This document shows positions 3,604-31,777 of a stretch of 64,000 nucleotides of DNA, in pieces. Below the pieces are notes generated by a model. That model saw nothing but the letters and a program-made list of their open reading frames with translations. It was not told the DNA's origin and did no database searches. The stretch is from Gammaproteobacteria bacterium (lineage in GTDB: Bacteria; Pseudomonadota; Gammaproteobacteria; Arenicellales; JAJDZL01). Location of the stretch: assembly GCA_022823625.1 (NCBI GenBank), contig JAJEHQ010000004.1, forward strand, positions 8,851-72,850, in the 5' to 3' direction. A program made the position numbers and the translations under genes. The first letter of the stretch is position 1, and every line of letters starts with the position of its first letter.

Positions 3604-3637
3604 AAGGGGGATTATATGCTTGACTAAAACAGCGAAA
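3603..3637. repeat. IS1595-type terminal inverted repeat (left)
   Basis: TAAGGGGGATTATATGCTTGACTAAAACAGCGAAA matches the reverse complement of 4517-4550, with a 19-nt perfect core CTTGACTAAAACAGCGAAA. Confidence 0.7.
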
Positions 3638-3848
3638 ATTTTGCCCAAAAATGCCTTAAAAACGAAAACTATTTCCTTTCTGAGACCGGTTGTTTCTTTC
3701 GACTGTCTTTGCTTTCGTCCCTGCCCATTCTCAATGGTGGTGTTAAAAGCTTCTGGCGCGCAATCCATTTCGCTCTTGTATGCTCACCTTCGTTGCCTTG
3801 GCACTGCGACGGTTCCACTTGATCTTGTAACATAACCAGCCTCCCCCG

Positions 3849-6157: not shown

Positions 6158-7257
6158 GTTCGCTGCATAATTCACCACCAAGTTTTGAGCAAGCTGGAAA
6201 TTTGCGTCAGAAAGTTCGGGCAACCGGCATGGACCCCGACTATTGGTACGCAGTCGAAGAAGTGCGTCGAATCAAACCTGGAACCGTAGTCGAAGTTATT
6301 TTTTGGAAACAGTCTATTGCGCTATATCGTGCAGAAGATGGATCATTTTACGCACTCGAAAATCGATGCGCACATCGCCAGCTCAAACTCTCACTAGGGA
6401 ATGTTCAAGGCTGTCGGCTTGTCTGCGCATATCACGGCTGGGAATATGACCAGACCGGTCGACGGGCCGATATCCCACAAACGAAGTCGGGCGGAAACAA
6501 AGGTCTGAAGCCTTCAATCAAGAGTTATCCTGTCAAGGTTCGCTATGGTCTAGTCTGGCTGTTTCCCGGCAAGGCTGAACGCTCTGAACAACGAGAGATT
6601 CCGGATATTCCAGAACTTGAAGGGCCAAAACGCTGGGCCTGCGTACCCCTCAGCTTCACTTGGTCAGCCCATCACTCGATGATTATCGATAACGTCAGCG
6701 ATTTCACGCACGCCTATCTTCACCGCAAGTATCGTCCGTTTCAGGATGCCGTCCTCACCCAATATGAGACGGTTGGGGATAACGTTCATCTTGCTTATGA
6801 CACGAAGGTCGGACGCGGGCGGATTTCAGGACTTTTTGTGGAGCACGACAAGATTGATACCAACAGCATGACGCTTTGCTTCCAATACCCCTACCAGTGG
6901 TCGAATACCGATGAGTGGATAAAACACTGGTTATTTGTTTTACCAATCGACGAACGGACCACACGAGTATTTTTTCTGTTTTATTTCAAATCTTTAAAAA
7001 TACCCTTACTGCCCATAAGAATTCCCCGCTTTGCAATGAGCGCAGTCATGAAAATCTCAAACCGCATGATGATTGCTCCCTTGTTAACTCAGGACAAAGT
7101 TGCCGTCGAGGCAGAACAACTGGGTTACGAGGCACACTGGGACGCACCTCCCATTGAATTCAATCCGGTTGTACGCGAGTTTCAAAATTTAACTGTTCGC
7201 AAGTGGGAAGAATACTTGGCCCGTGAATCCATGGAAAACAGTTTCGATAATGCCTGA
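6154..7257 (+). CDS. Rieske [2Fe-2S] non-haem oxygenase, SdmA-like (sterol C-4 methyl oxidase, bacterial type)
   Basis: Rieske motif CAHR...x17...CAYHGW. The TTG start at 6154 overlaps the upstream TGA (TTGA). AAGGAGG lies at 6141-6147, six nt upstream. Confidence 0.7.
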   Translation: MSSLHNSPPSFEQAGNLRQKVRATGMDPDYWYAVEEVRRIKPGTVVEVIFWKQSIALYRAEDGSFYALENRCAHRQLKLSLGNVQGCRLVCAYHGWEYDQTGRRADIPQTKSGGNKGLKPSIKSYPVKVRYGLVWLFPGKAERSEQREIPDIPELEGPKRWACVPLSFTWSAHHSMIIDNVSDFTHAYLHRKYRPFQDAVLTQYETVGDNVHLAYDTKVGRGRISGLFVEHDKIDTNSMTLCFQYPYQWSNTDEWIKHWLFVLPIDERTTRVFFLFYFKSLKIPLLPIRIPRFAMSAVMKISNRMMIAPLLTQDKVAVEAEQLGYEAHWDAPPIEFNPVVREFQNLTVRKWEEYLARESMENSFDNA

Positions 7258-8350
7258 ACCGAACTTTATATCGATGTTGACAACGCTGACGAGCCTGAAC
7301 CTGCTTGAAGCGGCGGGCATGGTTTTGGTATTCGTTGGGGTACTGTTTTTGGGTTCTGTAGTGGTACCTGGACGCCGAATCAAAGGTCCGGATATGGAGG
7401 GCGATACGCGCGAATATAAACTCAATGGTCTTGCGCTGTTTCTGATTACGGTATTTGTGACAGCTATTGTCCAGTCAATGGGTTGGTTTTCGCTTTCGGT
7501 GCTGTATTCGCAGTTTGCCGCTTTGTTCGTGGCTGCAAACGTATTCGCATTTTTACTTGCTACATGGCTTTATTTCCGGGCTACCCGTAATCAGGAAACC
7601 ACTACTGGCTTTTGGCGCAGATATTTTTTCGGTGCGCTGTCCAATCCGACCTGGCTCGGAGTGGACATTAAGCTATTTAGCTATCGCCCCTCTCTCATTG
7701 GTCTCGCACTCTTTAATGCCTCATTCGCCGTCATGCAATACGAAACTTACGGTGAACTGACGCTGGCAATGGTGCTATATCAAATCTTCACTTTTTTGTA
7801 TGTATTCAACTATTTCCAGTTTGAACAGGGAATGGTTCACACATGGGACATGATCAGTGAGCGCTTTGGATGGATGCTGATTTGGGGAGATTATGTCTTG
7901 GTGCCATTTTTTTACTGTTTGGTGGGTTGGTGGCTGGTGCACCCGTCTGATGTGCTGCATCCTATTACCGCAGTAGCAATTGTGTTGTTATTTGGATTCG
8001 GTTTCTGGCTATTTCGCGGCGCCAATCAACAAAAGCACCGCTTCAAACGTAAAGCTGATATCAGGATTTGGGGTCAACCCGCCCGTACCTTGGAAGGTCG
8101 GTTGCTGATCTCCGGTTTTTGGGGTGTTGGACGCCACCTTAACTATACGGGTGAAATTTGTGTCTACTTTTCATTTGCCCTGACCACAGGATTCGAGTCT
8201 TGGGTACCCTACCTCTTGCCTGTATGGTTGACTGTACTGCTGTGTCACCGCTCACTACGTGATGAGCAACGCTGTCGTGCCAAGTATGGCGATCTGTGGA
8301 CGCGCTACAAACAACGAGTCCGTTATTCAATGTTACCGTTTGTCTACTAG
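7250..8350 (+). CDS. Sterol reductase, ERG4/ERG24 family (probable C-14 reductase)
   Basis: Polytopic membrane ORF with the family C-terminus GFWGVGRHLNYTGEI...HRSLRDEQRCRAKYGDLWTRYKQRVRYSMLPFVY. The ATG at 7250 overlaps the upstream stop (ATGCCTGA). The track ORF starts at a GTG at 7223. Confidence 0.8.
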   Translation: MPEPNFISMLTTLTSLNLLEAAGMVLVFVGVLFLGSVVVPGRRIKGPDMEGDTREYKLNGLALFLITVFVTAIVQSMGWFSLSVLYSQFAALFVAANVFAFLLATWLYFRATRNQETTTGFWRRYFFGALSNPTWLGVDIKLFSYRPSLIGLALFNASFAVMQYETYGELTLAMVLYQIFTFLYVFNYFQFEQGMVHTWDMISERFGWMLIWGDYVLVPFFYCLVGWWLVHPSDVLHPITAVAIVLLFGFGFWLFRGANQQKHRFKRKADIRIWGQPARTLEGRLLISGFWGVGRHLNYTGEICVYFSFALTTGFESWVPYLLPVWLTVLLCHRSLRDEQRCRAKYGDLWTRYKQRVRYSMLPFVY

Positions 8351-8377: not shown

Positions 8378-9766
8378 ATGACGACCCTTTCCTCAACACA
8401 TCACACACCGCCACCGGCTAAGAATATTCCGATGCTGACCGGTGGATTGCCCTTGATTGGTCATCTGACGGAGTTTTTAAAGGATCCGGTTTCGATGTTG
8501 ATCCGTGGGTGGCATGAGCAGGGAGAGTTGTTTCAATTTCGTCTCGGTACGCGTAAATTCGTCTTGTTTGCCGGTCCCGAAGCGCATGATTGTTATTTCA
8601 GGGCGCCCCGAGATCACATGAGCGCTAAAGACGTCTATCAATTCACAGTACCAATTTTTGGTCGTGGTGTAGCCTACGACGTTTCCCCCGAACTGATGTC
8701 TGAGCAGTTGGGATTTCTCTACCCGGAACTGCGCGAATCCGCGTTACGCAAGTTTTCTGACATTATGTTTGAGGAGACAATGAATTTTGCTGATGCCATG
8801 GGCCAACAAGGAGAATTGGATTTACCACAGGCGATGAATCAGCTTACGATCAATATTGCCAGTCACTGCCTCATAGGTCCTGAGGTCCGTAATCAGTTGA
8901 ACGCTGGGTTTGCGGAAAGCTATCACGATTTGCAGAATGGAATCAACACCCTAGGCTTTTTCTTTCCTCATTTACCGACACCGGCGCATCGAAGTCGCGA
9001 TCGGGCACGGAAATCCATTTCCGAAATGTTTGAACGAATTGTCATGGAGCGACGGCGTACGGGTGCTAGGTCGGATGATTTCATGCAGAAAGTTATGGAA
9101 AGTCGTTACAAAGATGGCCGTGCGGTTACCGACGAAGAGATTACTGGAATTCTACTGACCGTATTGTTCGCGGGTCAGCACACTAGCGCAGTTCTTGCAA
9201 CCTGGACCTGTTTGGAACTTTTGAATTCGCCGTCGTACATTGACAAATTGCGGAACGAGATGCAGGAAATTTATGCAAATGAAAACGCTTCAAACATTGA
9301 CACCTTAAAGCAACAATCGTTGATGGAGTACACCATACGCGAAAACGAGCGACTACATCCGCCATTGATTTTGTTGATTCGAAAAGTACTCAAACCTGTG
9401 CAATTCGGTGATCATTCCGTACCCGCCGGCACCCTCGCCATGGTATCACCGGCAGCTGCTCACCGCTTGCCTCACCTATTCGCCAATCCAGACCGGTTCT
9501 ATCCGGAAAGATTTGCATCACCGAACCGCGAAGACAAACAACACCGCTACACTTTGATAGGTTTTGGCGGCGGTAATCACATGTGTATGGGGAAGCATTT
9601 TGCCTACCTGCAACTTAAAACGATCTGGACTGTACTGCTTGATCGCTTTGATTTTTTTACCGATCGAGACATTCCTGCCCCGAATTATGGCAGTTGGGTG
9701 ACAGGTCCCAAGGAGCCTTGTCGGGTTCGTTACCAACATCGCTCAAAATCTGGCATTTTCCATTGA
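8378..9766 (+). CDS. cyp51: Sterol 14-alpha-demethylase (CYP51)
   Basis: CYP51 signatures are present: YQFTVPIFGRGVAYDV, I-helix FAGQHTSA, and Cys loop FGGGNHMCMG. There is no fused ferredoxin domain (462 aa). Confidence 0.85.
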   Translation: MTTLSSTHHTPPPAKNIPMLTGGLPLIGHLTEFLKDPVSMLIRGWHEQGELFQFRLGTRKFVLFAGPEAHDCYFRAPRDHMSAKDVYQFTVPIFGRGVAYDVSPELMSEQLGFLYPELRESALRKFSDIMFEETMNFADAMGQQGELDLPQAMNQLTINIASHCLIGPEVRNQLNAGFAESYHDLQNGINTLGFFFPHLPTPAHRSRDRARKSISEMFERIVMERRRTGARSDDFMQKVMESRYKDGRAVTDEEITGILLTVLFAGQHTSAVLATWTCLELLNSPSYIDKLRNEMQEIYANENASNIDTLKQQSLMEYTIRENERLHPPLILLIRKVLKPVQFGDHSVPAGTLAMVSPAAAHRLPHLFANPDRFYPERFASPNREDKQHRYTLIGFGGGNHMCMGKHFAYLQLKTIWTVLLDRFDFFTDRDIPAPNYGSWVTGPKEPCRVRYQHRSKSGIFH

Positions 9767-12700
9767 GCAATAGTCTAGGATTCTATGACGTCGCCATCGT
9801 CGGCGCTGGTCCTGTCGGGAGCGTATGTGCCCTCGCCTACGCAAAAAAGGGCGCTCAAGTTGCTCTGTTCGAAGCGAATCCGAAGGCCTCCAAACGACTG
9901 GCCGGTGAGTGGTTGCATCCGCCGGCTCTTCGAATTCTAAACGAGGTCGGGGTTGAGATTGAATCGCAAATCGAAAGCGTCCCCGGCAACGGGTTTGCTG
10001 TGTTTCCGGAAGACGGCTCGGAACCGATTATACTTCCTTATGCGAACGGGTCCCGCGGTTTGGCATGTGAACATTCAGCACTCGTCTCGCTTCTTCATCA
10101 AAGTGTACAAAATGAGTCTAATATCGACTTTTTTGTTCCAGTTAAGGTTCTTGAAGCCACATCTGGTCAGATATCCATAGCTCTCAACGGAACCAATACT
10201 ACTGTCAACGCCAACCGAATTGTCGGTGCCGACGGTCGCGCATCAACTGTTCGCAAGTCACTGGGATTGCAGACTGGTCGGGTAACCTGCTCGCGTATGG
10301 TGGGGGTGATCGTTGAAGGGGAAGACTTGCAACTGAAGGGTTATGGCCATGTTCTGCTGGGTGGGCCAGGTCCGATTCTCATGTACCAATTGGGGCATGA
10401 TCGCGTCCGGATAATCGTCGATGTGCCGTTGAATCACTGGATTCCGCGTGACCGTATTGGGCTGTTGTCGGAAGCTTACGCCGATCGGCTACCTGAACAA
10501 CTCAGATCTGGATTTGTCGAAGCACTCCAGAACGGAAAATTTCATGCTGCAAACAATGAAATTAGAGCGCGAACGACTCATGGGAATTCAAACCTTGTTC
10601 TTGTAGGCGACGCAGTCGGAAATTACCATCCTATGACTGCGGTCGGCATGACTCTCGGTTTTGGTGATGCTTTCGATTTGGCGATGCACGAGAACTTTCG
10701 AGCATTTTCCTCCAAACGTCACTTGGCAACTCGCGGCCCTGAGTTACTGGCGATGGGTTTGTACGAGATTTTTGCTGACTATCGACGCGAATCAGCGGAA
10801 CTAAGGAGAGCGATTTATAGTAATTGGCGAAAACATCCTTTAGCCCGCAAAGGAACTGTAAGTCTACTTGCTTGTGAAAACACGTCGGTTGTTCATCTTT
10901 CTTTCACTGTTTCCACGATAGTCGCCCTTACGCTCCTTAGACAACTCCCGCGTAACTTTGAAAGACTACCCTGGAACCGTGCATTCAAAGTCATGAATGC
11001 TACCACTGGACGGTTGGTATGGCTGGTGCGCGGCATTATCGCCCAACGTAGAGACCGAAATAGAGGTGGCGAAAAAGACTTTCTTGCCCGTGATTCATTA
11101 GCCCGCGCATTCCTAATTTCCATTCCAACGAGATCCGATGATTCCAGGTCAATTCTCCAAAAGATTCATTCTCCCGATGTCGGTCCTGCCTTGGAGAGGG
11201 CTACAGAGCGTTTGTTGAGTCTCCAGAATGACAATGGCAGCTGGGAAGGAGAAATGGTTTGGTGTCCCATGCTCACCGCCCAATACGCTCTGCTACACTA
11301 CATTCTCGATCAGCCGCTGGAGCCACAACGACGACAACTTATCCTGCTTAGTTTCGAGAAGACTCGTCTTGAACAAGGGGTATGGGGTATGCACGAGCAT
11401 TCCTCACCTCATCTTTTCGTTACCACCCTTGTGTATGTCACATCGAGACTGCTTGGAGTCAGTCAAGATGATCCTTTGATCGAACCAGCGAGGCAGTTCC
11501 TGCAGGCAGAAGGGGTTGTCAATATTCCAAGTTGGGGCAAGTTTTGGCTAGCGCTGCTTAATCTCTACGACTGGGACGGAGTCCATGCTGTACTGCCAGA
11601 ATTGTGGCGACTGCCGCGTTGGTTTGTATTACATCCCTCTAAGTGGTATTGCCACACCAGGCTAATTTACATGGCTATGGCAACAGTTTACTCACAACGA
11701 TACCAAGCACCGATTACATCCACGATCACCTCTTTACGAGAAGAACTTTTTCCCCAAGGTTTTGACAAGGTGAATTTTTCCGAAGCCCGAAACAGTTTGC
11801 GAGAAGCTGATTTATTCTGCCGGCCGAGTCTGTGGCTTCGAGCCGGGTATTGCCTGACAAGAGCGTATGAAAAAGTTCATCTAAAGCGCCAAAGGACTCA
11901 AACTGTCGACAGACTGCTCAAACGAATCAAGTGGGAGTTGCAAACCACTAACCACACAAGCATATCTCCTGTCAGCGGTTTGCTCAATATTCTTGCCTTG
12001 TGGTTGCATGATCGGAATGACTCTGACATGTTGCAGGCGCTATCGCAGTTGGATGGTTGGATTTGGGAGGACGAGGAACAAGGTACGCGAGTTACCGGTG
12101 CAAGGAGTGCTTCGTGGGATACCGGGTTTGCGTTGCAGGCGTTGGCGAAGGTAGCTGAATTAGACAAGGTTCAGAACGCACTCACACATGGCTCTGAATT
12201 TTTGAGCCAAGAGCAAATTGTCAACAGTTTTCAGGGATATCAAGAGGCGAATCGTGCCGACCCTAAAGGTGGTTGGTGTTTTGCGGGAGGATGGCATGGC
12301 TGGCCGGTGTCCGACTGTACTGCAGAGGCTGCACTTGGAATTCTTGCTGTCCATGGCAAAAATTCTGACACCAGCACGTTGAGTGAAGCCGTACAGTTCA
12401 TGTTACGGAGCCAAAATCGAAATGGTGGTTTTGGCAGTTATGAATCAAAACGTTCAATGCTTGGTCTGGAGTGGCTTAATCCAGCTGAGATGTTTGGCGA
12501 ATCAATGACCGAGCACTCCTTTGTCGAATGCACTGCATCGTGCCTTAGCGCACTTAGTGAATTCAAGAGTCATTTCCCACAACTTGCAGACCAGACCGTA
12601 ACGAACGCCATTTCTAGAGGCGAAGCCTGGCTTCGCCGAACGCAAGCGAATGACGGATCATGGCGCGGCGTGTGGGGCGTTCAGTACATTTACGGCACCT

Positions 12701-13143
12701 TGTTTGGGATTCGGGGTTTGCTTGCGGCGGGAGCGAATCCTGGCGACCCGGCACTGCGACTGGCCTGCCATTGGCTGTTAGAGCGCCAACGCAATGATGG
12801 CGGTTGGGGAGAAAGTCACCGAGGCTGCTTCACTGGCCAATACATCGGGCTTGTGGAGAGTCAAGTTATCCAGACCGCGTGGGCTCTCATCGCACTGCTT
12901 GAGGCAGGTGACTCCAACTGGCACGCGATTTCAAATGGAATTGGCTATTTGCTCAACACGCAAAATGTGGATGGAACATGGCCAAAGCAAAATATGGTTG
13001 GTGTGTTTTTTCGCACTGCTCTGTTGGACTATGTACTGTATCGACAATACTTTCCTTTGCATGCATTGTGCCTCTACCAGCAACGACGTAAGATGCGTCA
13101 GTCGGTGAAAGTTGACACTGATTGCTGCACAGTAGCAGACTGA
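9763..13143 (+). CDS. Squalene monooxygenase - oxidosqualene cyclase fusion protein
   Basis: One uninterrupted frame. N-terminal FAD domain: YDVAIVGAGPVGS, VGADGRAS, GDAVGNYHPMTAVGMT. C-terminal cyclase: VSDCTAEA plus QW repeats (RSQNRNGGFGSY, RTQANDGSWRGVWG, ERQRNDGGWGES, NTQNVDGTWP). The start is uncertain. The TTG at 9763 overlaps the CYP51 TGA, and the track ORF begins at a TTG at 9694. Confidence 0.8.
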   Translation: MSNSLGFYDVAIVGAGPVGSVCALAYAKKGAQVALFEANPKASKRLAGEWLHPPALRILNEVGVEIESQIESVPGNGFAVFPEDGSEPIILPYANGSRGLACEHSALVSLLHQSVQNESNIDFFVPVKVLEATSGQISIALNGTNTTVNANRIVGADGRASTVRKSLGLQTGRVTCSRMVGVIVEGEDLQLKGYGHVLLGGPGPILMYQLGHDRVRIIVDVPLNHWIPRDRIGLLSEAYADRLPEQLRSGFVEALQNGKFHAANNEIRARTTHGNSNLVLVGDAVGNYHPMTAVGMTLGFGDAFDLAMHENFRAFSSKRHLATRGPELLAMGLYEIFADYRRESAELRRAIYSNWRKHPLARKGTVSLLACENTSVVHLSFTVSTIVALTLLRQLPRNFERLPWNRAFKVMNATTGRLVWLVRGIIAQRRDRNRGGEKDFLARDSLARAFLISIPTRSDDSRSILQKIHSPDVGPALERATERLLSLQNDNGSWEGEMVWCPMLTAQYALLHYILDQPLEPQRRQLILLSFEKTRLEQGVWGMHEHSSPHLFVTTLVYVTSRLLGVSQDDPLIEPARQFLQAEGVVNIPSWGKFWLALLNLYDWDGVHAVLPELWRLPRWFVLHPSKWYCHTRLIYMAMATVYSQRYQAPITSTITSLREELFPQGFDKVNFSEARNSLREADLFCRPSLWLRAGYCLTRAYEKVHLKRQRTQTVDRLLKRIKWELQTTNHTSISPVSGLLNILALWLHDRNDSDMLQALSQLDGWIWEDEEQGTRVTGARSASWDTGFALQALAKVAELDKVQNALTHGSEFLSQEQIVNSFQGYQEANRADPKGGWCFAGGWHGWPVSDCTAEAALGILAVHGKNSDTSTLSEAVQFMLRSQNRNGGFGSYESKRSMLGLEWLNPAEMFGESMTEHSFVECTASCLSALSEFKSHFPQLADQTVTNAISRGEAWLRRTQANDGSWRGVWGVQYIYGTLFGIRGLLAAGANPGDPALRLACHWLLERQRNDGGWGESHRGCFTGQYIGLVESQVIQTAWALIALLEAGDSNWHAISNGIGYLLNTQNVDGTWPKQNMVGVFFRTALLDYVLYRQYFPLHALCLYQQRRKMRQSVKVDTDCCTVAD

Positions 13144-13337: not shown

Positions 13338-14399
13338 TTAACTGTTTGAATGATGGGGTTTACGTGCCAAAAAGTAGTACATTGTCGTAAATGTACCGGT
13401 TTCACCACCTTTGACAATTGCATCAGCCGCTCTGTTCAAAATGGTGCTGACCATACGAGCGCCTTTAGGAAACAGTCGTACTCTCTCGCCGATTCTCAAC
13501 ACCAGGTTGGTAATCGCACGTCCCGCAGGTGTACGGGGAATACTCCGGAATGTGATGTCACGTCCTTGCAAGGGGCGATACCAAGGTATATCAGAGTTCG
13601 ATGCGCTAGCTAAGTCGCGCGCATCAAGGACCTCGAATCCAGCCTCGCACAATGCTTCATATACCCCTTTCGTGGTGGATATTCTGGGCAGCGCATTTCC
13701 AATCTCAATGTCTCTGACAATTCGCCTGTGTTCTGCATTTTGCGAATCAAACAATTCAGTTACGCACCAATCGTACCCGGCAAAACTCGCTCCTGGGCGA
13801 AGAACACGCAGTATTTCTCCAAACGCCGCTGTCTTGTCTGGCGCATGGGGCATGGACTCGATGGCGAAAGCACCATCAAAGCAATCATTGTCTTCAGGTA
13901 TCTTCATGTAATCGCCATGAATGAAGCGGCACAGCGACTTGATGTCCTCAGCCTGTGTAACTTCTTTGGCGCGCTTTATTTGGTACGCGTTGTTGTTAAG
14001 CCCTACAAATTTAGCCCCTGAATAGCGAGCCAATTCAGCCATTGGTCCCCCTACTCCGCACCCCACATCGAGAATATGCATTCCAGGTTTCAGGGACATT
14101 TGGTCCGCAATAAAATGCTGATGCCTCAGTAATGACGCCTTAAAACTCTCACCTCGTCGTCGAGGTGCAAAGTGAAATGAATTGCCCCAACCAAACTCGT
14201 AGAAGTCAGTTGCCAAGTTGTAGTAGTGGTTGACAAATTTCTGGTAGGTTTCTTTTCGATGTTCTTCGCCAGACTCATAGATTTTTTCATATTCATTGAC
14301 CACAGAATCGACTTCATCATCGGACAGGGCACCGAGCAGCCCAGAAGAATTCAGTTGTTTGTCAAATACCGATGGTAAATCTTTATTTTCTTCAGCCAA
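13338..14399 (-). CDS. Sterol C-24 methyltransferase (Erg6/SMT family), paralog A
   Basis: Region-I motif FYEFGWGNSFHFAP, SAM motif ILDVGCGVGGP, then NNNAYQI. TTG start. Confidence 0.85.
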   Translation of the reverse strand: MAEENKDLPSVFDKQLNSSGLLGALSDDEVDSVVNEYEKIYESGEEHRKETYQKFVNHYYNLATDFYEFGWGNSFHFAPRRRGESFKASLLRHQHFIADQMSLKPGMHILDVGCGVGGPMAELARYSGAKFVGLNNNAYQIKRAKEVTQAEDIKSLCRFIHGDYMKIPEDNDCFDGAFAIESMPHAPDKTAAFGEILRVLRPGASFAGYDWCVTELFDSQNAEHRRIVRDIEIGNALPRISTTKGVYEALCEAGFEVLDARDLASASNSDIPWYRPLQGRDITFRSIPRTPAGRAITNLVLRIGERVRLFPKGARMVSTILNRAADAIVKGGETGTFTTMYYFLARKPHHSNS

Positions 14400-14445
14400 G
14401 CGAATGATCCTACTGAGTTGAAATAACGAAAGTCATTGAGCAAAA

Positions 14446-14455
14446 CTTCTAGAAG
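14446..14455. promoter_or_regulatory. 10-bp perfect palindrome CTTCTAGAAG in the SMT-A leader (candidate operator)
   Basis: It lies ~47 nt upstream of the SMT-A start. A near-identical element sits at the same relative position upstream of SMT-B. Confidence 0.3.
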
Positions 14456-14844
14456 GCTATCAACGGATTGATTTACAGTTGGGTGGAACCTATACATTGA
14501 TTTTTAAATTGCTCATTCACTGCAAAAATCATAAATCCAATACTTGAATCTTCAGGGCATTCGAATTATGCGCTGTCAGACAGTAAAAGGTAAGTGCCAT
14601 TTTGTGCATTGGAATCGTGCAACAACTGAACCAAAGCGTGACTCAATTTGAGCAGATTCGAGGTTGGTGAATAACGGATATCCTTAAATATTTGACTAAC
14701 TGCAGAAAATTAAACTGTGGTATTTTACGGTTCTCATTCGCAACTCACCAATTTATTGCACCATCAACTTCTTAAATTAAATCAAATCTATACTCGAACA
14801 AAATTCTATTTTTCAGTGGCGGCTCAGTTCAATTCTACTCACCT

Positions 14845-15663
14845 CTAACGGATACGCTTTATCGCTGTTTGCGTAAAGTTGCTTTCATCAAGGTCAGTCT
14901 TAAACTCCAGATCCGACCAAAGCATGTCGGTGCTCTTACCGGTAAGATGGTTCACCATCATGATCTTGCTAGCTTGCCAGAAATTATTGAGATACTTTTC
15001 GTAGTTCTCAAGGGTCATCGTTTTTAGGTGTGCGTTTCTACGGTCAAAGAAATGAACCTGCTGGACACGAAGCTCTTCCCGGTCGTACCAAACCAGATGA
15101 CGCGAATAACCTGAATCGGCGCTGACTGGAACACGCTCCAATACTGCACACTGCAAATCGCCGCAGGGTTCGTCGCGCAAGAATTTATGCGTATATTTCT
15201 CAATTTCAACCGCGCCAAGATCCTCGTAAGCAAACTCACTACCCATAAAGGAACCTGACTGTTTTGACGAACTGATCCGTTTTACTCGTTTGAGCGCGGG
15301 TAGATAAAGCCATTGATCATCAGGCTCGAACTTATGGGCATGAACTAGAAAGGCTGTTCCTTTGACGTCACGCGGCTCATCAAACACAAACAGGGAACGG
15401 TCGCCATCCTCTTCAACTTCCAGCACTTTCAACCGCACTTTGCGCGAAGATTCCTTACCCTGTTTGTTTCGCAAAATCATGGTAAGACTTGCCGTGTAAT
15501 TAACAAATCCATACTGCTTTTGGCGGGCTTCCATTGCAATTTGAAACCCTATTTCCTCAGCATTCTGTGCACTCACGGTGAATGGCGTCATAACCAATGC
15601 AAATACAGCAAAATAGATGCTAAGTGATCCGAGGTTGTAATTACGATGAGAAAGACTTTGCAT
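14845..15663 (-). CDS. LolA-like outer-membrane lipoprotein-sorting family protein (periplasmic lipid carrier candidate)
   Basis: Signal peptide present. The core DGDRSLFVFDEPRDVKGTAFL...DDQWLYLPALKRVKRISSSKQSGSFMGSEFAYEDL matches the remembered LolA_like family, which usually partners MMPL/RND permeases. Confidence 0.65.
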   Translation of the reverse strand: MQSLSHRNYNLGSLSIYFAVFALVMTPFTVSAQNAEEIGFQIAMEARQKQYGFVNYTASLTMILRNKQGKESSRKVRLKVLEVEEDGDRSLFVFDEPRDVKGTAFLVHAHKFEPDDQWLYLPALKRVKRISSSKQSGSFMGSEFAYEDLGAVEIEKYTHKFLRDEPCGDLQCAVLERVPVSADSGYSRHLVWYDREELRVQQVHFFDRRNAHLKTMTLENYEKYLNNFWQASKIMMVNHLTGKSTDMLWSDLEFKTDLDESNFTQTAIKRIR

Positions 15664-16209
15664 TTTTACCTCCTAATCACTACAACAGAAGAGTGGTAAA
15701 GGCCTGGGATATAAGGAAGTTACTGACCGCGACCCGACTCTGGAACATAGTTCGCGTGTCAACTGGTGTGACGGGTGCACGATTATCTTGACGTTGAACT
15801 TTAGTTTTCATCCTCGGCCGTGAAACAACGTTCAATCGTTTACGTCATCAACGCCATTTTTCATCATTGGTACTTTTGGTGATGTTATCCTGTCAAAAGT
15901 CACAACTAATGGTGTCGACCATCAGAAATACTGCACCAAAACCTTCCGACGGTGACTGAATATCGGTACGAACTCACAAGTCTTTGGCATAGATTTAATT
16001 GTATCACCTTCGATGGTTCCAAACGGACGGGGACCTGACGCGTCAGAAAAAGGGGCAAATTCAAGCTTGGATGAAATTTATGTGTGGACATGGGTTTTCT
16101 GTCTTTGTGGTAGTTTATCTTATTGATTATGTTTAGAAATTACCACAAATGGAAGCCTATTTGAGTTTGGCGAGTAATTCAAGCTGGGGAATGCAATAAT
16201 AATTCCGAT

Positions 16210-17283
16210 TTAACTGTCTGGATTATGGGGTTTACGTACCAGGAAAAAATATAGTGGTGTAAATATTCCAGTCTCACCGGCTTCGATGAATGCATTCCCC
16301 GCCCTGCCCAGAAATGTGGTGATTTTGTGAGTCCCTTTCGGAACTCCCCGTACTTTCTCACCTATCCTTAACACCAATTTGGTGACTGCACGACCGGTAG
16401 GTGTGATTAGAATATTTCTAAGTGTGAAGTCTGTGAAGTGACGACCTTGAAAGATGTTATACCATGGTATATCGGAGCCAGATATGTGAGCAAGGTCACA
16501 CGTATCGAGAACTTCGAATCCAGCCTCGCAAAATGCTTCACAAATTTCTGCTGCGGTGGAAATTTTGGGTAGTGCGGTCCCAATCTCAATGTCTTCAATA
16601 ATCCGCGTGTGTTCAGCATTCTGCGAGTCAAAAAAGTCGGTTACACACCAATCGTGACCCGCAAAACAAGCCCCTGGACGCAATACACGAAAAACTTCCC
16701 GGAACGCTGCTGTTTTGTCTGGTGCATGCTGCATGGACTCGATGGCGATCGCGCCATCAAAGCAATCGTTGTCTTCGGGTATCTGCATGTAATCGCCATG
16801 AACAAAATCGCACAACGACCCAATATCCTCAGCTTGCGTGATTTGTCTTGCACGTTTAATTTGGTACGCGTTATTGTTAAGTCCCACAAAACTAGCCCCG
16901 GAATAGCGGGCCAATTCAGCCATTGGAGCTCCGATTCCACACCCTACATCGAGTATATGCATTCCCGGTTTCAGGGACATTTGGTCTGCAATAAAGTGCT
17001 GATATCGGAATTTCGACGACTTAAGACTCTCACCCAATCGTCGAGGTGCAAAATGAAAAGATCTGCCCCAGACGAACTCGAATAATCCAGTTACCAGGTC
17101 GTAATAATGATTGACATATCTCTGATATGTCTCTTTTCGATGTTCCTCGCCAGACTCATAAATTTGTTGGTATTCATTGGCCACGGAACTAATTTCATCC
17201 TTGGACAGGTCTCCGAACAAACTGGAAGAATTCATCGCTTTTTTTGGCGACCGTGACGATGGTTTATTTTGATCAGTAGCCAC
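16210..17283 (-). CDS. Sterol C-24 methyltransferase (Erg6/SMT family), paralog B
   Basis: Region I is LFEFVWGRSFHFAP (Phe where paralog A has Tyr), followed by ILDVGCGIGAP. The GTG start is preceded by GGGAGGAG. Confidence 0.85.
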   Translation of the reverse strand: MATDQNKPSSRSPKKAMNSSSLFGDLSKDEISSVANEYQQIYESGEEHRKETYQRYVNHYYDLVTGLFEFVWGRSFHFAPRRLGESLKSSKFRYQHFIADQMSLKPGMHILDVGCGIGAPMAELARYSGASFVGLNNNAYQIKRARQITQAEDIGSLCDFVHGDYMQIPEDNDCFDGAIAIESMQHAPDKTAAFREVFRVLRPGACFAGHDWCVTDFFDSQNAEHTRIIEDIEIGTALPKISTAAEICEAFCEAGFEVLDTCDLAHISGSDIPWYNIFQGRHFTDFTLRNILITPTGRAVTKLVLRIGEKVRGVPKGTHKITTFLGRAGNAFIEAGETGIFTPLYFFLVRKPHNPDS

Positions 17284-18876: not shown

Positions 18877-21207
18877 ATGAATGTTTATGAATTTTTCAAC
18901 TTGGTAGTCAGATACCGCTGGTTAACAATTTTTCTTTCGTTGCTGATTGTGGTGGTGTTCGCTGCGGGAGTTACGCGAATTGTTACTGTCGACGTAGATT
19001 TTCGAAATCACTTCAACAAAGATGATCCGCATTTGGTTAAGCTCGAAGAAATGGAGGATCTGTTCGCGCTTTCAGATAGCGCACTTGTAGTGATCGCACC
19101 CTCGACTGAAACCATTTTTACCCGTGAGGCACTTGCCGCAGTCGAACAGTTGACCGAACAGCTTTGGCTGACTCCGTATGTAGTTCGCGTCGATTCTTTA
19201 GCAAACTACTCACATAGCGAAGGACTCGAAGACGAACTAATCGTTGAACAGCTATTCGAAGATGCGATTTCGCTGAGTGACGAAGAGTTGGAGCGAATTC
19301 AGAGGATCGCACTCGATACGACGGATATCGCCGGTCGTTTTATTTCACGAGACGGTCGTCTCGGTGGATTTGTTATTAGTCTTGCACTTCCCGATAGTGA
19401 TCGAGAAGCAGCAAAAATTGAAGTTGTCGACTTTCTAAATGGCCTTGCTGTTGAAGCTCGCACCAGCAATCCGGAATTTGAATATCACCTCTATGGTGAT
19501 CTCTTTCTTAATCGCGCCGTCCGTGACGCGATCAATAACGATATAGCCGTTCTAGCACCAATTGCGTTTGGCACGATGCTGCTGGTCGCGTTAATAGTAC
19601 TTCGATCAATTTGGGGAATGATTGCGATCGTTGCCATGTTGATGACCGTGTTGCTTTCTGCGCTTGGGTTTACTGGTTGGACGGGTATGCCTTTGTTTGG
19701 AGAGAGTGGTGCAGCGTTGTTTGTATTAATGGCGATTGCCATCGCTCATTCGGTTCATGTAATTGAGGTAATGGCAGATGGTATGCGCTCAGGGATGTCA
19801 CGCAGGTCTGCCGCGATTCATTCCTTGCAACTCAACGCGTGGCCTGTATTTCTGACTTCACTAACCACCGCTATCGGTTTTCTCAGCTTGAATTTCTCGG
19901 AAATGCCCCCGTTTCGAGTCATGGGCAACATCGTCGCATTCGGAGCGATGTGCGCATTCGTATTTTCGGTCACACTTTTGCCTGCATTGTTGTCGATTAT
20001 GCCCATGAGAACTCGGGTTGCACCAGCAGGAAAACTATACTTTTTTGATCATCTGGCAAAATTTGTTGTTTCCAATAGTACCCGATTGTTGTGGACTTTT
20101 GTCATCTTAACAGCCGTACTCGTTGTCGGAATTACGCGCATCGAGCTCAACGAAAATCATTTGGAAATTCTAGATGAAAGTTACGAGTTTCGACGGTCCA
20201 CCGATTTCATAGTGGAAAATTTCTCAGCATTGGAGCCATTCGAGTACTCGCTTAATTCAGGTCGCGATAGCGGTGTTACTGATGTTGAGTTTCTGCGTAA
20301 TGTCGACGCTTTCGCACAGTGGCTTCGAATGCAGCCGGAAGTTTCTTACGTTGTGTCATTTACTGACGTTCTTAAGCGGCTGAATGAAAACCTGCATGGT
20401 GACGACCCCAATTTTTATAAGCTGCCGGAGGATTCTGAACTTGCCGCGCAATACTTGCTGCTTTACGAATTCTCTTTGCCAGTTGGACGCGATCTAAACA
20501 ATGTCATTGATGTCGAACGTTCCAAAACTCGCTTAACAGCTGTTATTAAAGGTTTGTCGATTGGTGAGAAGATTGAACTCGACGAACGTGCGAAATCCTG
20601 GCTGCATCAAAATGCTCCAGGTATGGCAACCGGAGCAACCGGAGTTACGATAGTCGGTGCATATTCGATTATGCGAAACATAGAAAGAATGCTGATCGGA
20701 ACTATCATTGCGATGTCCATAGTTTCGTTGCTACTGATATTTGTCTTTAGAAGTTTCCGGTTTGGTCTGATTAGCCTGATACCCAATTTCGTTCCAGCCA
20801 TCATGGCTATGGGTGTATGGGGATACGTCGTCGGACAGGTTGATATATCGGCTTCGGTTGTTACAGCAATTGCTTTTGGTATCATCGTGGACGATACGAT
20901 ACATCTTATGACAAAATACCTGAGAGAGCGGGCTAGCGGGAAGTCGCCTGAGGATGCTATCCGGCCGGTATTTCGAATAGTGGGCCGTCCGCTATTGACA
21001 ACAACAGCAATTTTTGCCTTGGGATTCATGGTGTTTGGAACGTCAGCACTGTCTGCCAATCAGACACTCGGTGTGTTGGTGGGACTAACTGTTGTAATTG
21101 CGCTGGTGGCGGATTTATTGCTGTTTCCGCCGTTGCTAATGACCTTGGACAAAACCAGGGGTAAACTGAGTGATTTTAAGAAAGGATCTTCTCATCACGC
21201 ACGCTAG
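18877..21207 (+). CDS. RND-superfamily MMPL/HpnN-type permease (candidate sterol exporter)
   Basis: 776 aa with the 1+5 / 1+5 TM pattern and two large soluble loops typical of RND permeases. The sterol role is inferred from context only. Confidence 0.7.
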   Translation: MNVYEFFNLVVRYRWLTIFLSLLIVVVFAAGVTRIVTVDVDFRNHFNKDDPHLVKLEEMEDLFALSDSALVVIAPSTETIFTREALAAVEQLTEQLWLTPYVVRVDSLANYSHSEGLEDELIVEQLFEDAISLSDEELERIQRIALDTTDIAGRFISRDGRLGGFVISLALPDSDREAAKIEVVDFLNGLAVEARTSNPEFEYHLYGDLFLNRAVRDAINNDIAVLAPIAFGTMLLVALIVLRSIWGMIAIVAMLMTVLLSALGFTGWTGMPLFGESGAALFVLMAIAIAHSVHVIEVMADGMRSGMSRRSAAIHSLQLNAWPVFLTSLTTAIGFLSLNFSEMPPFRVMGNIVAFGAMCAFVFSVTLLPALLSIMPMRTRVAPAGKLYFFDHLAKFVVSNSTRLLWTFVILTAVLVVGITRIELNENHLEILDESYEFRRSTDFIVENFSALEPFEYSLNSGRDSGVTDVEFLRNVDAFAQWLRMQPEVSYVVSFTDVLKRLNENLHGDDPNFYKLPEDSELAAQYLLLYEFSLPVGRDLNNVIDVERSKTRLTAVIKGLSIGEKIELDERAKSWLHQNAPGMATGATGVTIVGAYSIMRNIERMLIGTIIAMSIVSLLLIFVFRSFRFGLISLIPNFVPAIMAMGVWGYVVGQVDISASVVTAIAFGIIVDDTIHLMTKYLRERASGKSPEDAIRPVFRIVGRPLLTTTAIFALGFMVFGTSALSANQTLGVLVGLTVVIALVADLLLFPPLLMTLDKTRGKLSDFKKGSSHHAR

Positions 21208-21407: not shown

Positions 21408-23417
21408 TCAGGCAGGAAAATCCTTCCATCGTTCTGCAATATGAATTTTCAGTTTTTTACTGACTGACAGGGAGGAATAGGCGTTGAATTTAAACTTGAA
21501 ATTCGGATCTGACAATTCGAGCCTGAAGTGATGTGCGATCATCAACAGATTGACAGCCATATGCTTCACCACCCAGCGTACCCCGAGGCACATATGGGTG
21601 CCCAGTCCAACTGGAGCAAATGAAGTACTGCGATGCGCGTTGGTGGGCGGAAGATAACGGTCAATGTCAAATTTGAATGGTTCTGGGAACGCCTCTTCCA
21701 TAAAATGTGCGGCCCCCATTACAATGAAAACATGTTCTCCAACGGGTAACTCGATGTCATCGACCAACCACGAATTTGACACGTTTCGAGGAATTAAATA
21801 GACGACAGGGTAAATTCGCTGACACTCAAGCACAAAGCGGTGAGTAACGTCGAAATCCGATAAATCTAAGGTCTCTGGGTCTGGATCGCCATTGGAAAAA
21901 ATGGCATCGGCTTCGCTGCGAATTTTTGCATACAAGTCGGGTTGTGTTACCATGGCGTAGATGGCGCAACCCATGAGATCGGAAAAGTACTGGCTTGCAA
22001 GCATCGGCGACGAGAGCATGAACCTCAAATTCGCCTCGGGGAAGAATTGCGGATCGCTGGCATACAAAGAAAGTGTTTCATCAGCAAGTTCCCAAGGTTG
22101 ACCAACCCGTTGTTCAGGCGTATGGTTCTGCTGAACTCTTTTGACAGCATCATCAACAGCTTTGCGACCGCGTTTCATTCGCGAAGTATTGAACAACAAT
22201 CTTGTCACAAACTTGGGTGGATTGAAAACGATGTGGATCATTTGAACCGCGTTCTTCCACTTCATTACATCCTCAAAAATATCGTTCGTTTCCGTACTCG
22301 TAAGAAGTGGCATGATTTGAGCATTAGATAATTTCCGTGAAGTTTCATACACTTGCACATGTGAACCCACTTTCCAATGACTCTTCATGTGGTTACGAAT
22401 CATATCGAAAACAGAATTCATCTCACTCTCAAGTTTCCTGACCGAATAGGCTCGCTGCAAAGCTCTACGCAAAGTGAAGTGATCGGATCCGTCTAGACTG
22501 ACTAGCACCCCGATACCGCCGTATTCATTTTCCACACCTTGATAAAACTTCTTCGATGTCAGGTACTGGCGCCCATTACGATGAACCCAGCGGTTGATAT
22601 CGATACCGGCAAGGAAAGTCATTGGCTGAGTTAAAGGTATGTTAATCCGAAAAACCGAACCATACTCTTTGGCGAAATCTGCAAGCATCGCAGGTATATT
22701 ACCGTTCCAAACGTGTCGATTCGATAGAATCTTAAGCAGTGGAACGGATGGTATTTTTTTCTTGAAACTGGGACGCTGCAGTAACGGAACAGCAATAGAA
22801 TCTTTAACAGCAGCAGCAATTGAGCGACCGATCAGTTCCATCTGACAGATTTGCTCAATTCGTTTTTCTGCTTTTTCATCAATTTCAAAGATGAAGTGAA
22901 ACAAACCACACGAATTAACAAGGCCGACAATGATGATGTCTCTCGGGAGGGGAATTGTGTTAGAAAAAATAGCATCGCTAATTCGCGACTTGATTAACTG
23001 ACTAGCTGTATGTTCTTGAGAGTATCCATGCCACGTCGCGGGAGCCAGCGTCCAGAACTCGCCTTCATGATGCTTCAGAATTTCCAATTTAACCAGACGG
23101 TCAAGCGTGGAATCAATTATGTCCTCCGCGTGGACAGCGAGTCGTTCGATCCAGTAGCGGGCATTGTGAGGAGTCTTGTCCTTCGAGATTGCCTTCAGAC
23201 AAAGATCTAAAACTGGATCACCAGTTTCTGTCGGGTCCAATACAAAAAGTGATTCAATGTCTGTATCAATTCGCGACTGTAGGGAAAGGTCTGCGAGTGC
23301 GGCTCCAATGACAGCGCAATTTAGGGACCAGCCGGGTACTTGATAAAAATAACCGGTCTGCTCGTTTAAAAGCATTAAAACCAGCTCTTCAGGCAAATTC
23401 AAACGTCGGGTCGCCAT
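21408..23417 (-). CDS. GPP34/GOLPH3-like domain - cytochrome P450 fusion
   Basis: Residues 1-~200 show the GPP34 pattern (LPEELVLMLLNEQTG, IGAALADLSLQSRIDTD, VLDPTETGDPVLD, PRDIIIVGLVNSCGLF). Residues ~215-669 are a full P450, with ExxR at ECQR and Cys loop FAPVGLGTHMCLG. Confidence 0.75.
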   Translation of the reverse strand: MATRRLNLPEELVLMLLNEQTGYFYQVPGWSLNCAVIGAALADLSLQSRIDTDIESLFVLDPTETGDPVLDLCLKAISKDKTPHNARYWIERLAVHAEDIIDSTLDRLVKLEILKHHEGEFWTLAPATWHGYSQEHTASQLIKSRISDAIFSNTIPLPRDIIIVGLVNSCGLFHFIFEIDEKAEKRIEQICQMELIGRSIAAAVKDSIAVPLLQRPSFKKKIPSVPLLKILSNRHVWNGNIPAMLADFAKEYGSVFRINIPLTQPMTFLAGIDINRWVHRNGRQYLTSKKFYQGVENEYGGIGVLVSLDGSDHFTLRRALQRAYSVRKLESEMNSVFDMIRNHMKSHWKVGSHVQVYETSRKLSNAQIMPLLTSTETNDIFEDVMKWKNAVQMIHIVFNPPKFVTRLLFNTSRMKRGRKAVDDAVKRVQQNHTPEQRVGQPWELADETLSLYASDPQFFPEANLRFMLSSPMLASQYFSDLMGCAIYAMVTQPDLYAKIRSEADAIFSNGDPDPETLDLSDFDVTHRFVLECQRIYPVVYLIPRNVSNSWLVDDIELPVGEHVFIVMGAAHFMEEAFPEPFKFDIDRYLPPTNAHRSTSFAPVGLGTHMCLGVRWVVKHMAVNLLMIAHHFRLELSDPNFKFKFNAYSSLSVSKKLKIHIAERWKDFPA

Positions 23418-30443: not shown

Positions 30444-30492
30444 GGGTTGTTTAAGTTCGTCGTGCCAAAATTTCCTGGACTAGCTCATCAAT

Positions 30493-31715: not shown

Positions 31716-31777
31716 TCCTTTTTCATATCATATGATAACATAAATCAAAATTCAATCTAATATGTGGTGATTATGAA

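Follow-up and report, generated by a model that had tools for sequence, protein, structure and literature searches.

Bacterial genomes with two sterol C-24 methyltransferase (SMT) genes, and the way such pairs complicate sponge and eukaryote biomarkers, are already described (Brown et al., 2023; Brown & Welander, 2025; Kelly et al., 2022). A single SMT can carry out as many as three methylations, which makes copy number a poor predictor. Division of labour has a bacterial precedent in Sandaracinus, where the “1 of 2” enzyme ethylates and the “2 of 2” enzyme methylates; the divergent second copies of three other bacterial pairs were inactive on desmosterol or 24-methylenecholesterol. Every ethylating bacterial SMT tested so far can methylate desmosterol too, and a bacterial SMT dedicated to the second step is therefore not known. 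The pair considered here is a new variant of this published arrangement, not a new phenomenon.

A sterol gene cluster with two SMT genes

The window (the whole stretch of DNA analysed, 64,000 nt) includes two SMT genes within the following neighbourhood:

2419..3768, minus: GPP34-domain protein at one cluster edge (Pfam GPP34, 123 bits)
5021..6157, plus: 3-beta-HSD/epimerase-family protein, SdmB-like, C-4 demethylation (Pfam 3Beta_HSD/Epimerase; synteny)
6154..7257, plus: Rieske oxygenase, SdmA-like, bacterial C-4 demethylation (Pfam Rieske and VanA_C; syntenic with sdmA homologs)
7223..8350, plus: ERG4/ERG24-family sterol reductase, C-14 reductase by synteny (Pfam PF01222, 252 bits)
8378..9766, plus: P450 in the sterol 14-demethylase (CYP51/ERG11) position (Pfam p450, 209 bits; synteny)
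9694..13143, plus: fused squalene monooxygenase-oxidosqualene cyclase (SQMO-OSC), 1149 aa (Pfam SE/FAD_binding_3 and SQHop_cyclase_N/C)
13338..14399, minus: SMT-A, intact ORF, 353 aa, TTG start
14845..15663, minus: LolA_like / TP_0789-like periplasmic lipid-carrier gene, 272 aa (Pfam PF17131, 203 bits)
16210..17283, minus: SMT-B, intact ORF, 357 aa, GTG start
18877..21207, plus: MMPL/RND-type transporter (Pfam MMPL, 114 bits)
21408..23417, minus: GPP34-cytochrome P450 fusion, 669 aa, at a cluster edge (Pfam GPP34, residues 8–205, and p450, residues 231–653)

The first-pass annotation had described two diverged SMT paralogs on the same strand, 1.8 kb apart and flanking a LolA-like gene. ORFs, Pfam and BLASTP agree with this; both genes are on the minus strand, and the gap between them is 1,810 nt. 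Its hand estimate of 70–80% core identity was also close, the computed value for the methyltransferase core (Erg6 residues 74–230) being 79.6%. BLASTP gives 246/355 identities (69%) overall, with 62% in the C-terminal part. Both proteins match Pfam Sterol_MT_C (PF08498, cut-off 21.7 bits), SMT-A at 67.3 bits and SMT-B at 62.1, as well as class I methyltransferase domains (Methyltransf_11 in SMT-A), and searches recovered more than 2,200 homologs for each. SMT-A shares 64–70% identity with over 100 bacterial SMTs; SMT-B shares only 55–61% with generic bacterial SMTs and 88–90% with its own orthologs. There is no solved SMT structure; AF2 models reached pLDDT 81 and pTM 0.83 for SMT-A and pLDDT 80 and pTM 0.82 for SMT-B, an equal fold confidence.

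The gene set in the window (SdmB, SdmA, ERG24, CYP51, SQMO-OSC, SMT-A, LolA, SMT-B, MMPL, GPP34-P450) has the SMT pair adjoining the SQMO-OSC, CYP51, ERG24, SdmA-like and SdmB-like genes, and judged by domain content and synteny the pair is inside a complete bacterial sterol-biosynthesis cluster. The P450 in the CYP51 position is syntenic with ERG11 homologs in Supplementary Data 1 of Brown et al. (2023), and published clusters contain the same SQMO-OSC fusion, the gene for which is convergent with SMT-A here. The LolA-like protein matches PDB 3bk5 (“putative outer membrane lipoprotein-sorting protein”, E = 8e-78), and the position of its gene is conserved in genomes L003, L004, and L084. The MMPL gene, conserved beside sterol clusters in these three and in L167, L169, and L170, likely encodes its partner in lipid export. 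The GPP34-P450 fusion is conserved in L003, L004, L084, L017, L167, L023, L015, and L169; it is found as well where a cluster has just one, canonical SMT, and so is not specifically tied to SMT-B.

A 95%-identical ortholog is found on a 2.3-Mb “Arenicellales bacterium” MAG contig, and an identical SMT-A is present in an Ircinia sponge metagenome set. The cluster belongs to a sponge-associated gammaproteobacterium of the Arenicellales, a symbiont whose hosts are probably Ircinia sponges. Because the organism is a sponge symbiont, the connection to 24-alkyl sterane biomarkers that had been drawn for this locus is apt.

Residue states of the two paralogs

Residue numbers below are those of yeast Erg6; the Erg6 sequence used for the alignment matched 28/28 residue/number pairs in the literature. 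Region I, the sterol-binding motif, is located as follows:

14169..14210, minus: Region I of SMT-A, translation TDFYEFGWGNSFHF
17050..17091, minus: Region I of SMT-B, translation TGLFEFVWGRSFHF, with Y81F, D79G, F80L, and G84V

These translations are exactly the peptides first reported, and the Tyr-to-Phe difference noted between them holds in the alignment to Erg6 (Y81 in SMT-A, F81 in SMT-B). It is one change among several. The Region I core is FYEFGWG in SMT-A and LFEFVWG in SMT-B, with D79G, F80L, and G84V beyond Y81F, and outside Region I the differences from SMT-A to SMT-B include G132A, F192I, P198Q, and Y223H. SMT-A has Y81, F83, G84, F192, Y223, N249, and T359; SMT-B has G79, L80, F81, F83, V84, A132, I192, Q198, H223, and T249. 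Both “second-methylation gate” tyrosines, 81 and 223, are gone in SMT-B (F81, H223), and gate positions 81, 192, and 223 are altered in SMT-B only.

The Region I signature of SMT-B is fixed across all B orthologs. Among the ~200 SMTs examined, TGLFEFVWG occurs nowhere outside the B clade, nor were V84 and A132 seen outside it. G84, Val in SMT-B, is 100% conserved among 142 other bacterial SMTs, and the residues substituted in SMT-B that are otherwise 99–100% conserved in bacteria are Y81, G84, F80, Y223, L290, R308, and G351. D125, G127, G129, P133, E195, G217, W85, H90, F91, W286, and others are kept, as are the GxGxG SAM motif and the C-terminal domain. For Region I (consensus Y/F-E-x-G-W-G-x-x-F-H-F), SMT-A matches in full (YEFGWGNSFHF), while SMT-B (FEFVWGRSFHF) keeps W85, G86, F89, H90, and F91 with Val at the invariant G84. 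For Region II (DxGxGxxGP), SMT-A is an exact match (DVGCGVGGP), and SMT-B (DVGCGIGAP) retains GxGxG and P133 with Ala at 132 (Val in one ortholog).

Brown & Welander (2025) list 25 residues that are conserved in every functional SMT. SMT-A has 24 of these, the exception being P359T, and SMT-B has 23 (G84V, G132A). The rule is empirical and is satisfied by 4/11 inactive SMTs, so that failing it lowers the chance of activity without excluding it. Every SMT tested, active or inactive, has kept G84 and P359, which puts both paralogs outside the tested sequence space.

SMTs are oligomeric, and SMT-B might be inactive on sterol side chains, either a structural or regulatory pseudo-enzyme or a copy in slow decay, with SMT-A doing all of the methylation. 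This seems unlikely. It would fit with V84 and A132 replacing glycines that belong to the 25-residue set, the first of them present in every tested SMT, but G132A is conservative and follows GxGxG; SMT-B still has the SAM motif, E195, H90, W85, and the C-terminal domain, and its AF2 model is as confident as that of SMT-A.

Origin and possible function of SMT-B

In a neighbor-joining (NJ) tree the B clade has 100% bootstrap support and is nested in a group of the A clade, P0002/3, and B (95%), with P0004 falling outside (88%). About a dozen derived residues are common to SMT-A, SMT-B, and near relatives, and dS is ~1.0 between A and B vs 0.2 between orthologs. By its sequence relationships, SMT-B arose through a recent duplication of the A type, specific to one Arenicellales lineage. 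The first-pass annotation's view that the pair is built the same way as that of plants does not survive this, since SMT-B is a recent duplicate in a small A-like clade (NJ bootstrap 95–100%) with no ancient split of the SMT1/SMT2 type.

SMT-B has evolved about twice as fast as SMT-A. Tajima tests count 13–16 unique changes in SMT-A vs 49 in SMT-B (p ~1e-5), and 203 conserved columns include 34 B-only vs 5 A-only changes. Within clades and on stems, dN/dS is 0.10–0.13 for SMT-A and 0.21–0.25 for SMT-B (computed over four orthologs), and the B stem, at 0.22, shows no burst. Substrate Regions I–IV contain no excess of the B-only changes (8/34 vs 34/169, Fisher p = 0.65); together with the lack of a stem burst, this fits general relaxation as well as re-tuning. 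The doubled dN/dS and the 34 changes at otherwise conserved sites across the protein could also be read as signs of inactivity, as could the “No activity” result in vitro for the second copies of the A. aerophoba/Nitrospira, Theonella/Chromatiales, and coral-reef Nitrospira pairs. Against this, SMT-B is under clear purifying selection and is not a dead copy, and its reading frame is intact in every genome carrying an ortholog.

Both genes are kept in the diverged genomes L003, L004, and L084. This bears on a further reading, which we also consider improbable, to about the same degree as inactivity: that the two are redundant or sub-functionalised, performing the same C-24 methylation with differences in nucleus preference (e.g., 4,4-dimethyl vs 4-desmethyl), expression, or kinetics. 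The duplication is recent, the cores are 80% identical, F81 alone leaves product number unchanged in several SMTs, and each gene has its own AT-rich upstream spacer (445–590 nt), compatible with separate regulation; against this stand the strong rate asymmetry, the replacement in SMT-B of residues that are 99–100% conserved, and the rarity with which simple redundancy lasts in diverged genomes where both copies are kept.

The reading we favor, tentatively and somewhat short of an even chance, is a lineage-specific duplication in which SMT-A performs the first methylation and the divergent SMT-B takes a different sterol, perhaps the 24-methylene product. We infer every catalytic assignment for the two proteins from their sequences. 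SMT-A, the conserved enzyme adjoining the fused squalene epoxidase-cyclase, would most likely catalyse the usual initial SAM-dependent C-24 methylation, with 24-methyl or 24-methylene sterols as the products. SMT-B would be a working enzyme held by selection, its SAM-binding and catalytic residues retained and its putative sterol pocket altered at F81, I192, and H223, with V84 and A132 as further changes; given these residues, its substrate is most likely a sterol other than that used by SMT-A. The simplest conjecture is that it would take up the 24-methylene product and convert it to 24-ethyl(idene) sterols.

A plant-like sequence of methylation and then ethylation is possible but weakly supported. 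The effect cited for it, a second methyl transfer gained by yeast Erg6 with Y81F, agrees with the literature (Nes et al., 1999, cited by Brown & Welander, 2025). Erg6 second-methylation mutants are published at six positions (Y81F, Y192F, G217L, G218L, T219L, and Y223F), and SMT-B is altered at three of them (81, 192, and 223). The Chlamydiae “2 of 2” SMT has F81, yet only methylates.

Neither paralog is predicted to make 24-isopropyl sterols. Phe at 81 and/or 83, as in propylating SMTs, is present in both (F83 in SMT-A, F81 and F83 in SMT-B), but Gly249, necessary though not sufficient for 24-isopropyl products in published work, is replaced by Asn in SMT-A and Thr in SMT-B. The G249N and G249T mutants in the literature lose the C30 products; they remain able to ethylate but never propylate.

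Quite improbable, and more so than inactivity or redundancy, is an unconventional alkylation by SMT-B, at another side-chain position or on a side chain already modified by the GPP34-P450, leading to unusual sponge-type sterols and not simply to the 24-ethyl series. TGLFEFVWG is confined to the SMT-B type among the ~200 SMTs examined, other symbionts have independent divergent second SMTs that lack Tyr81 and are inactive on the two standard substrates, and the authors of that work suggest that such enzymes may need other substrates; the uncharacterised P450 fusion is also conserved in the same clusters. It occurs beside single canonical SMTs too, however, and in the SMT literature consulted no SMT methylates beyond C-24/C-28 chemistry. 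Slightly less probable again is that SMT-B represents a new functional class of bacterial SMT (marked by TGLFEFVWG, H223, and A132) that alkylates a non-standard, possibly GPP34-P450-modified side chain. If it did, a sponge symbiont would be able to make unconventional side-chain-alkylated sterols now credited to the sponge host and used as animal biomarkers.

Comparison with described SMT systems

A closely similar cluster is that of an Aplysina aerophoba symbiont, JGIcombinedJ30088_10000835 (Brown et al., 2023), recovered here in essentially the same form as L167, a Nitrospira sp. MAG contig (GCA_026713625.1). It too is a sponge-symbiont cluster, and its genes and their order are almost the same: a single gene stands between the second SMT and the main one, followed by the fused SMO-OSC, CYP51, ERG24, sdmA, and sdmB, with GPP34-P450 and MMPL nearby. 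Each cluster has one conservative SMT (42% vs 39% identity to Erg6) and one divergent SMT (35% vs 34%), and the divergent copy lacks Tyr81 and Tyr223 in both clusters. The L167 “2 of 2” enzyme, the one inactive second copy recovered here, showed no activity in vitro; it is nevertheless only 39% identical to SMT-B and not its ortholog, a point against the inactive reading of SMT-B. The Nitrospira-type copy is an old deep branch with SEFMVYGWG, Q223, and I249, whereas SMT-B groups with SMT-A. In L167 a 97-aa KshA_C fragment separates the two SMTs, the second of which lies on the opposite strand; the present pair has a LolA-like gene and a shared strand. The L167-type main SMT, with F81 and G249, makes 24-isopropyl sterols; SMT-A has Y81 and N249.

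Two SMTs in one genome or cluster are also found in other bacterial phyla, in Sandaracinus sp. (“1 of 2” adding two carbons and “2 of 2” one) and a Chlamydiae sp. MAG (three and one), which are set beside SMT-A and SMT-B by description (Brown et al., 2023; Brown & Welander, 2025). In these the multi-methylating enzyme also does the first step, so neither pair has strict step-1 and step-2 specialists.

Plants likewise have two paralogous SMTs in one organism, proposed to methylate C-24 and then C-28. Plant SMT1 and SMT2 stem from an ancient split and act on distinct nucleus substrates (cycloartenol vs 24-methylenelophenol). SMT-A and SMT-B, unlike them, come from a recent duplication within one bacterial order. 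Nor is the plant difference a Y81F switch: soybean SMT1 needed an engineered Y81F for more 24-ethyl output.

Compared with the yeast Erg6 gain-of-function mutants, SMT-B is naturally non-Tyr at 81 and 223 and has Ile at 192, but its H223 and I192 differ from the substitutions tested (Y223F, Y192F), and V84, L80, and G79 lie beyond that set. Introducing Y81F made no difference to the SMTs of T. brucei and P. brasiliensis.

Of the SMTs with experimental results, LXNJ01014139 (L087), from a Petrosia ficiformis metagenome, is the one closest to SMT-A, at 68% identity. It has the same residues at 81, 83, 84, 192, 223, and 249, with P359 where SMT-A has T359, and likewise lies in a sponge-symbiont cluster with SMO-OSC. 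The enzyme is active and is listed among those that carry out one methylation, adding one carbon.

The SMT pair and its sterol cluster

A sterol cluster holds two intact SMT-family genes (sterol C-24 methyltransferases), both under selection: the canonical SMT-A, and SMT-B, a fast-evolving, recent duplicate. The first-pass annotation had described two SMT paralogs 1.8 kb apart on one strand, with a LolA-like gene between them and about 70-80% core identity by hand count. Both ORFs were located, on the minus strand; identity was measured at 80% in the catalytic core (69% overall, 62% in the C-terminal part), and the translated peptides of Region I, the sterol-binding motif, match those first read exactly. 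The main features are:

2419-3768, minus strand: GPP34-only protein, at the edge of the sterol cluster opposite the GPP34-P450 fusion
9694-13143, plus strand: squalene monooxygenase-oxidosqualene cyclase (SMO-OSC) fusion, 1149 aa, a single ORF
13338..14399, minus strand: SMT-A, complete ORF, 353 aa
14845..15663, minus strand: LolA_like gene (periplasmic lipid carrier), 272 aa, in the 1.8-kb gap between SMT-A and SMT-B
16210..17283, minus strand: SMT-B, complete ORF, 357 aa
18615-18690, plus strand: tRNA-Lys(CTT), inside the cluster, flanked by the genes for a small membrane protein and the MMPL transporter
18877-21207, plus strand: MMPL/RND transporter, in the sterol cluster
21408-23417, minus strand: GPP34-cytochrome P450 fusion, at one edge of the sterol cluster

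Both proteins have Pfam sterol methyltransferase C-terminal and class I SAM-methyltransferase domains, far over the cut-offs, and their AF2 models are equally confident (pLDDT 80-81, pTM 0.82-0.83). A PDB search found no SMT structure, the nearest folds being TleD, RebM and GPP C-methyltransferase. In scans of the pair's surroundings, no promoter, terminator, repeat or Rfam signal rose above chance except one tRNA.

The pair is placed inside a full bacterial sterol cluster, in the order GPP34 protein, SdmB-like 3-beta-HSD, SdmA-like Rieske oxygenase, ERG24-type reductase, P450 in the CYP51 position and SMO-OSC fusion; then, on the other strand, SMT-A, the LolA-like gene and SMT-B; and then the small membrane protein, tRNA-Lys, MMPL/RND transporter and GPP34-P450 fusion. 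The CYP51-like gene and the SMO-OSC fusion overlap by 73 nt, at the end of the former and the start of the latter; gene callers on related contigs begin the fusion at 1126 aa. In Brown 2023 (Supplementary Data 1) ERG1 and ERG7 match one gene, which already implies the fusion. The LolA_like carrier and MMPL/RND transporter accompany the sterol cluster in all related genomes, and one MMPL protein of a compared locus (L170, 2266-4572) also matches the Pfam Sterol-sensing domain; together these suggest a dedicated sterol export route to the outer membrane. Elsewhere in the window, a region of low GC (30001-32800, 0.405) encodes an MqsA-like antitoxin/HTH protein and an HNH endonuclease; it may represent a small islet, mobile or defensive, with no tie to the cluster.

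Origin and divergence of SMT-B

Against the same hundreds of bacterial SMTs, identity is 64-70% for SMT-A and 55-61% for SMT-B; the closest non-orthologs of SMT-B are A-type proteins. In a neighbour-joining tree (100 bootstraps), SMT-B and its orthologs (the B clade, 100%) are nested in a shallow clade (95%) together with the A clade and its nearest relatives, with one more A-like protein just outside (88%). The nesting is supported by some 12 derived residues common to A, B and their near relatives. Horizontal acquisition of SMT-B is unlikely: at 0.456, its GC fraction differs little from those of SMT-A (0.475) and the window (0.476), and it groups with SMT-A in the tree. Synonymous divergence (dS) between the two is ~1.0, vs ~0.2 for the most distant ortholog pairs, so the duplication predates the sampled genomes, yet is limited to one lineage; the B-LolA-A arrangement is kept in four related contigs. 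SMT-B is thus a recent, lineage-specific duplicate, older than the genomes sampled.

The two copies have diverged at different rates. Relative-rate tests gave 13-16 unique changes in SMT-A vs 49 in SMT-B (p ~1e-5), and in 203 columns at least 90% conserved elsewhere, 34 changes are B-only and five A-only. Within clades and along inferred stems, dN/dS is 0.10-0.13 for SMT-A and 0.21-0.25 for SMT-B; purifying selection on SMT-B is about half as strong. At the resolution of a parsimony ancestor and NG86, the B stem showed no positive-selection burst, the value there (0.22) being the within-clade one.

Residues are numbered by yeast Erg6, from a reference sequence that agreed with 28/28 residue/number pairs in the literature. 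SMT-A is canonical in Region I (F80, Y81, E82, F83, G84) and has F192, Y223 and N249. One departure, its residue 339, is Thr at Erg6 position 359, where 99% of other bacterial SMTs have Pro; T359 is fixed across the A-clade orthologs, themselves under strong purifying selection. SMT-B has G79, L80, F81, F83, V84, A132, I192, Q198, H223 and T249, a signature common to all its orthologs. In 142 other bacterial SMTs, conservation is 100% at G84 and F80 and 99% at Y81, G132 and Y223; among ~60 further, more diverse SMTs from loci in genomes and metagenomes, only the B clade has V84 and A/V132. Clustering of the SMT-B changes in substrate Regions I-IV was ruled out, with no enrichment there (Fisher p = 0.65).

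SMT-B retains its SAM-binding and catalytic residues and is altered in the pocket at the known gate positions (81, 192, 223). Redundancy of the two copies, or sub-functionalisation by nucleus substrate, is judged unlikely.

Related loci and the GPP34-P450 fusion

Contigs named KELL22/SAMN22237341 and a Logan assembly encode a protein identical to SMT-A; a relative at 97% lies in GCA_022820165.1, and another at 95% is on a 2.3-Mb contig bearing the title "Arenicellales bacterium". From their naming, MAGs labelled jk18x... appear to trace to Kelly et al. 2022, who studied the microbiomes of Ircinia sponges in the Caribbean and reported SMT, ERG24, CYP51 and LSS genes to be enriched in the symbionts; the organism is therefore a sponge-associated gammaproteobacterium. 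Three other compared loci differ in their SMTs:

L168 (sister lineage), 7087-7650 and 11221-12552: ERG2/sigma-1-receptor-like gene and a second, longer ERG4/ERG24-family reductase, adjoining the SMT
L023 (Thermodesulfobacteriota MAG), 6537-7460 and 10001-10897: SMT pair from an independent duplication
L015 (another Arenicellales MAG), 10001-11008: long-branch SMT with F81 and T223

L168 has a single SMT in a rearranged cluster, reshuffled around transposases; its longer reductase is possibly a C-24(28) reductase, absent from the window's cluster. Both L023 copies have Cys81 and the Region I sequence TDFCERGWGKSIHF.

The GPP34-P450 fusion also occurs in L167 (6045-8072), L169 (7282-12022), L170, L015 (two genes near the SMT) and L023. 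It lies in or beside sterol clusters with MMPL and LolA-like genes in Arenicellales, Nitrospirota and Thermodesulfobacteriota symbionts, an Acidimicrobiia contig being the exception. The fusion has been described as exclusive to sponge symbionts, with a proposed role in evading phagocytosis (PMC11706023, 2025); the main text of that paper makes no mention of sterols, so the genomic link may be unreported so far. A narrower association, with full-length fusions within 10 kb only beside SMTs lacking Tyr81 (4/4 lineages vs 0/~40), was rejected: a genome with a single canonical SMT has two fusions 13-20 kb off in the same cluster, and an apparent "co-loss" genome has two further copies nearby. The pattern is an artefact of the 10-kb flank.

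Possible functions and comparison with published SMTs

C-24-alkylated steranes are interpreted as eukaryote fossils, and 24-isopropyl steranes as sponge fossils. Active SMTs are also encoded by uncultured bacteria, some of them sponge symbionts (Brown et al., 2023): of 24 metagenomic bacterial SMTs expressed, many were active, and three each made 24-isopropyl sterols alone. Two SMTs were present in several genomes or clusters, copy number was judged an unreliable predictor by the authors, and all SMTs using 24-methylenecholesterol also methylated desmosterol. Across functional SMTs 25 residues are conserved, with G84 and P359 in all proteins tested, and in Erg6 Y81F, Y192F, G217L, G218L, T219L and Y223F each permit a second methylation (Brown & Welander, 2025).

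The reading tentatively favoured is that SMT-A would carry out the first C-24 methylation and SMT-B would have a shifted substrate or product specificity, adding the second carbon in the simplest version. Since neither has G249, neither would be expected to make 24-isopropyl sterols. Unconventional alkylation by SMT-B is quite improbable; it would suit a Region I signature (V84, L80, G79) that, with A132, lies beyond all SMTs tested to date.

Already published are bacterial SMT pairs and their origin in sponge symbionts, the cluster with fused SMO-OSC, the part played by residue 81 and the consequence for biomarkers; by itself the locus leaves the current picture unchanged. What is new, besides that signature, is the B clade as an independent, young duplicate. 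The locus is a clean natural experiment, a young duplicate pair in one genome with one copy canonical and the other substituted at positions that mutagenesis ties to extra methylations, as well as at "invariant" glycines. It bears on rules proposed for predicting products (the 25 conserved residues, F81/F83, residue 249) and on whether C29 sterols can come from an Ircinia symbiont.

Among tested enzymes, a Petrosia SMT (LXNJ01014139) is closest to SMT-A, 68% identical and alike in key residues. Supplementary Figure 1 of Brown & Welander 2025 sorts enzymes by activity; judged by row order and counts, the group labels being imprecise in machine-read text, the Petrosia protein falls in the block with the SMTs given in the text as one-methylation enzymes, as the last row before "No activity". 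In the latter group are three second copies, from the pairs of A. aerophoba, Theonella/Chromatiales and coral-reef Nitrospira. SMT-B might likewise be inactive, or regulatory; its retained catalytic residues and continuing purifying selection speak against this, and it is considered rather unlikely.

The A. aerophoba contig has almost the same gene order as the window (Brown 2023, Supplementary Data 1). Its cluster was recovered through the codon-optimised "1 of 2" sequence in the preprint supplement, which translates to a compared protein, P0124; the contig encoding this is L167, from a Nitrospira sp. MAG, which also carries a second SMT. That protein is 35.16% identical to Erg6, exactly the published "2 of 2" value; it shares 89% identity with the second SMT from a further genome of the Nitrospirales, vs 39% with SMT-B, and it has Region I SEFMVYGWG, Q223 and I249. 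It is therefore a different, older paralog type than SMT-B, and the inactivity of "2 of 2" cannot simply be transferred. Divergent second SMTs without Tyr81 and Tyr223 have thus arisen independently in symbionts of two phyla.
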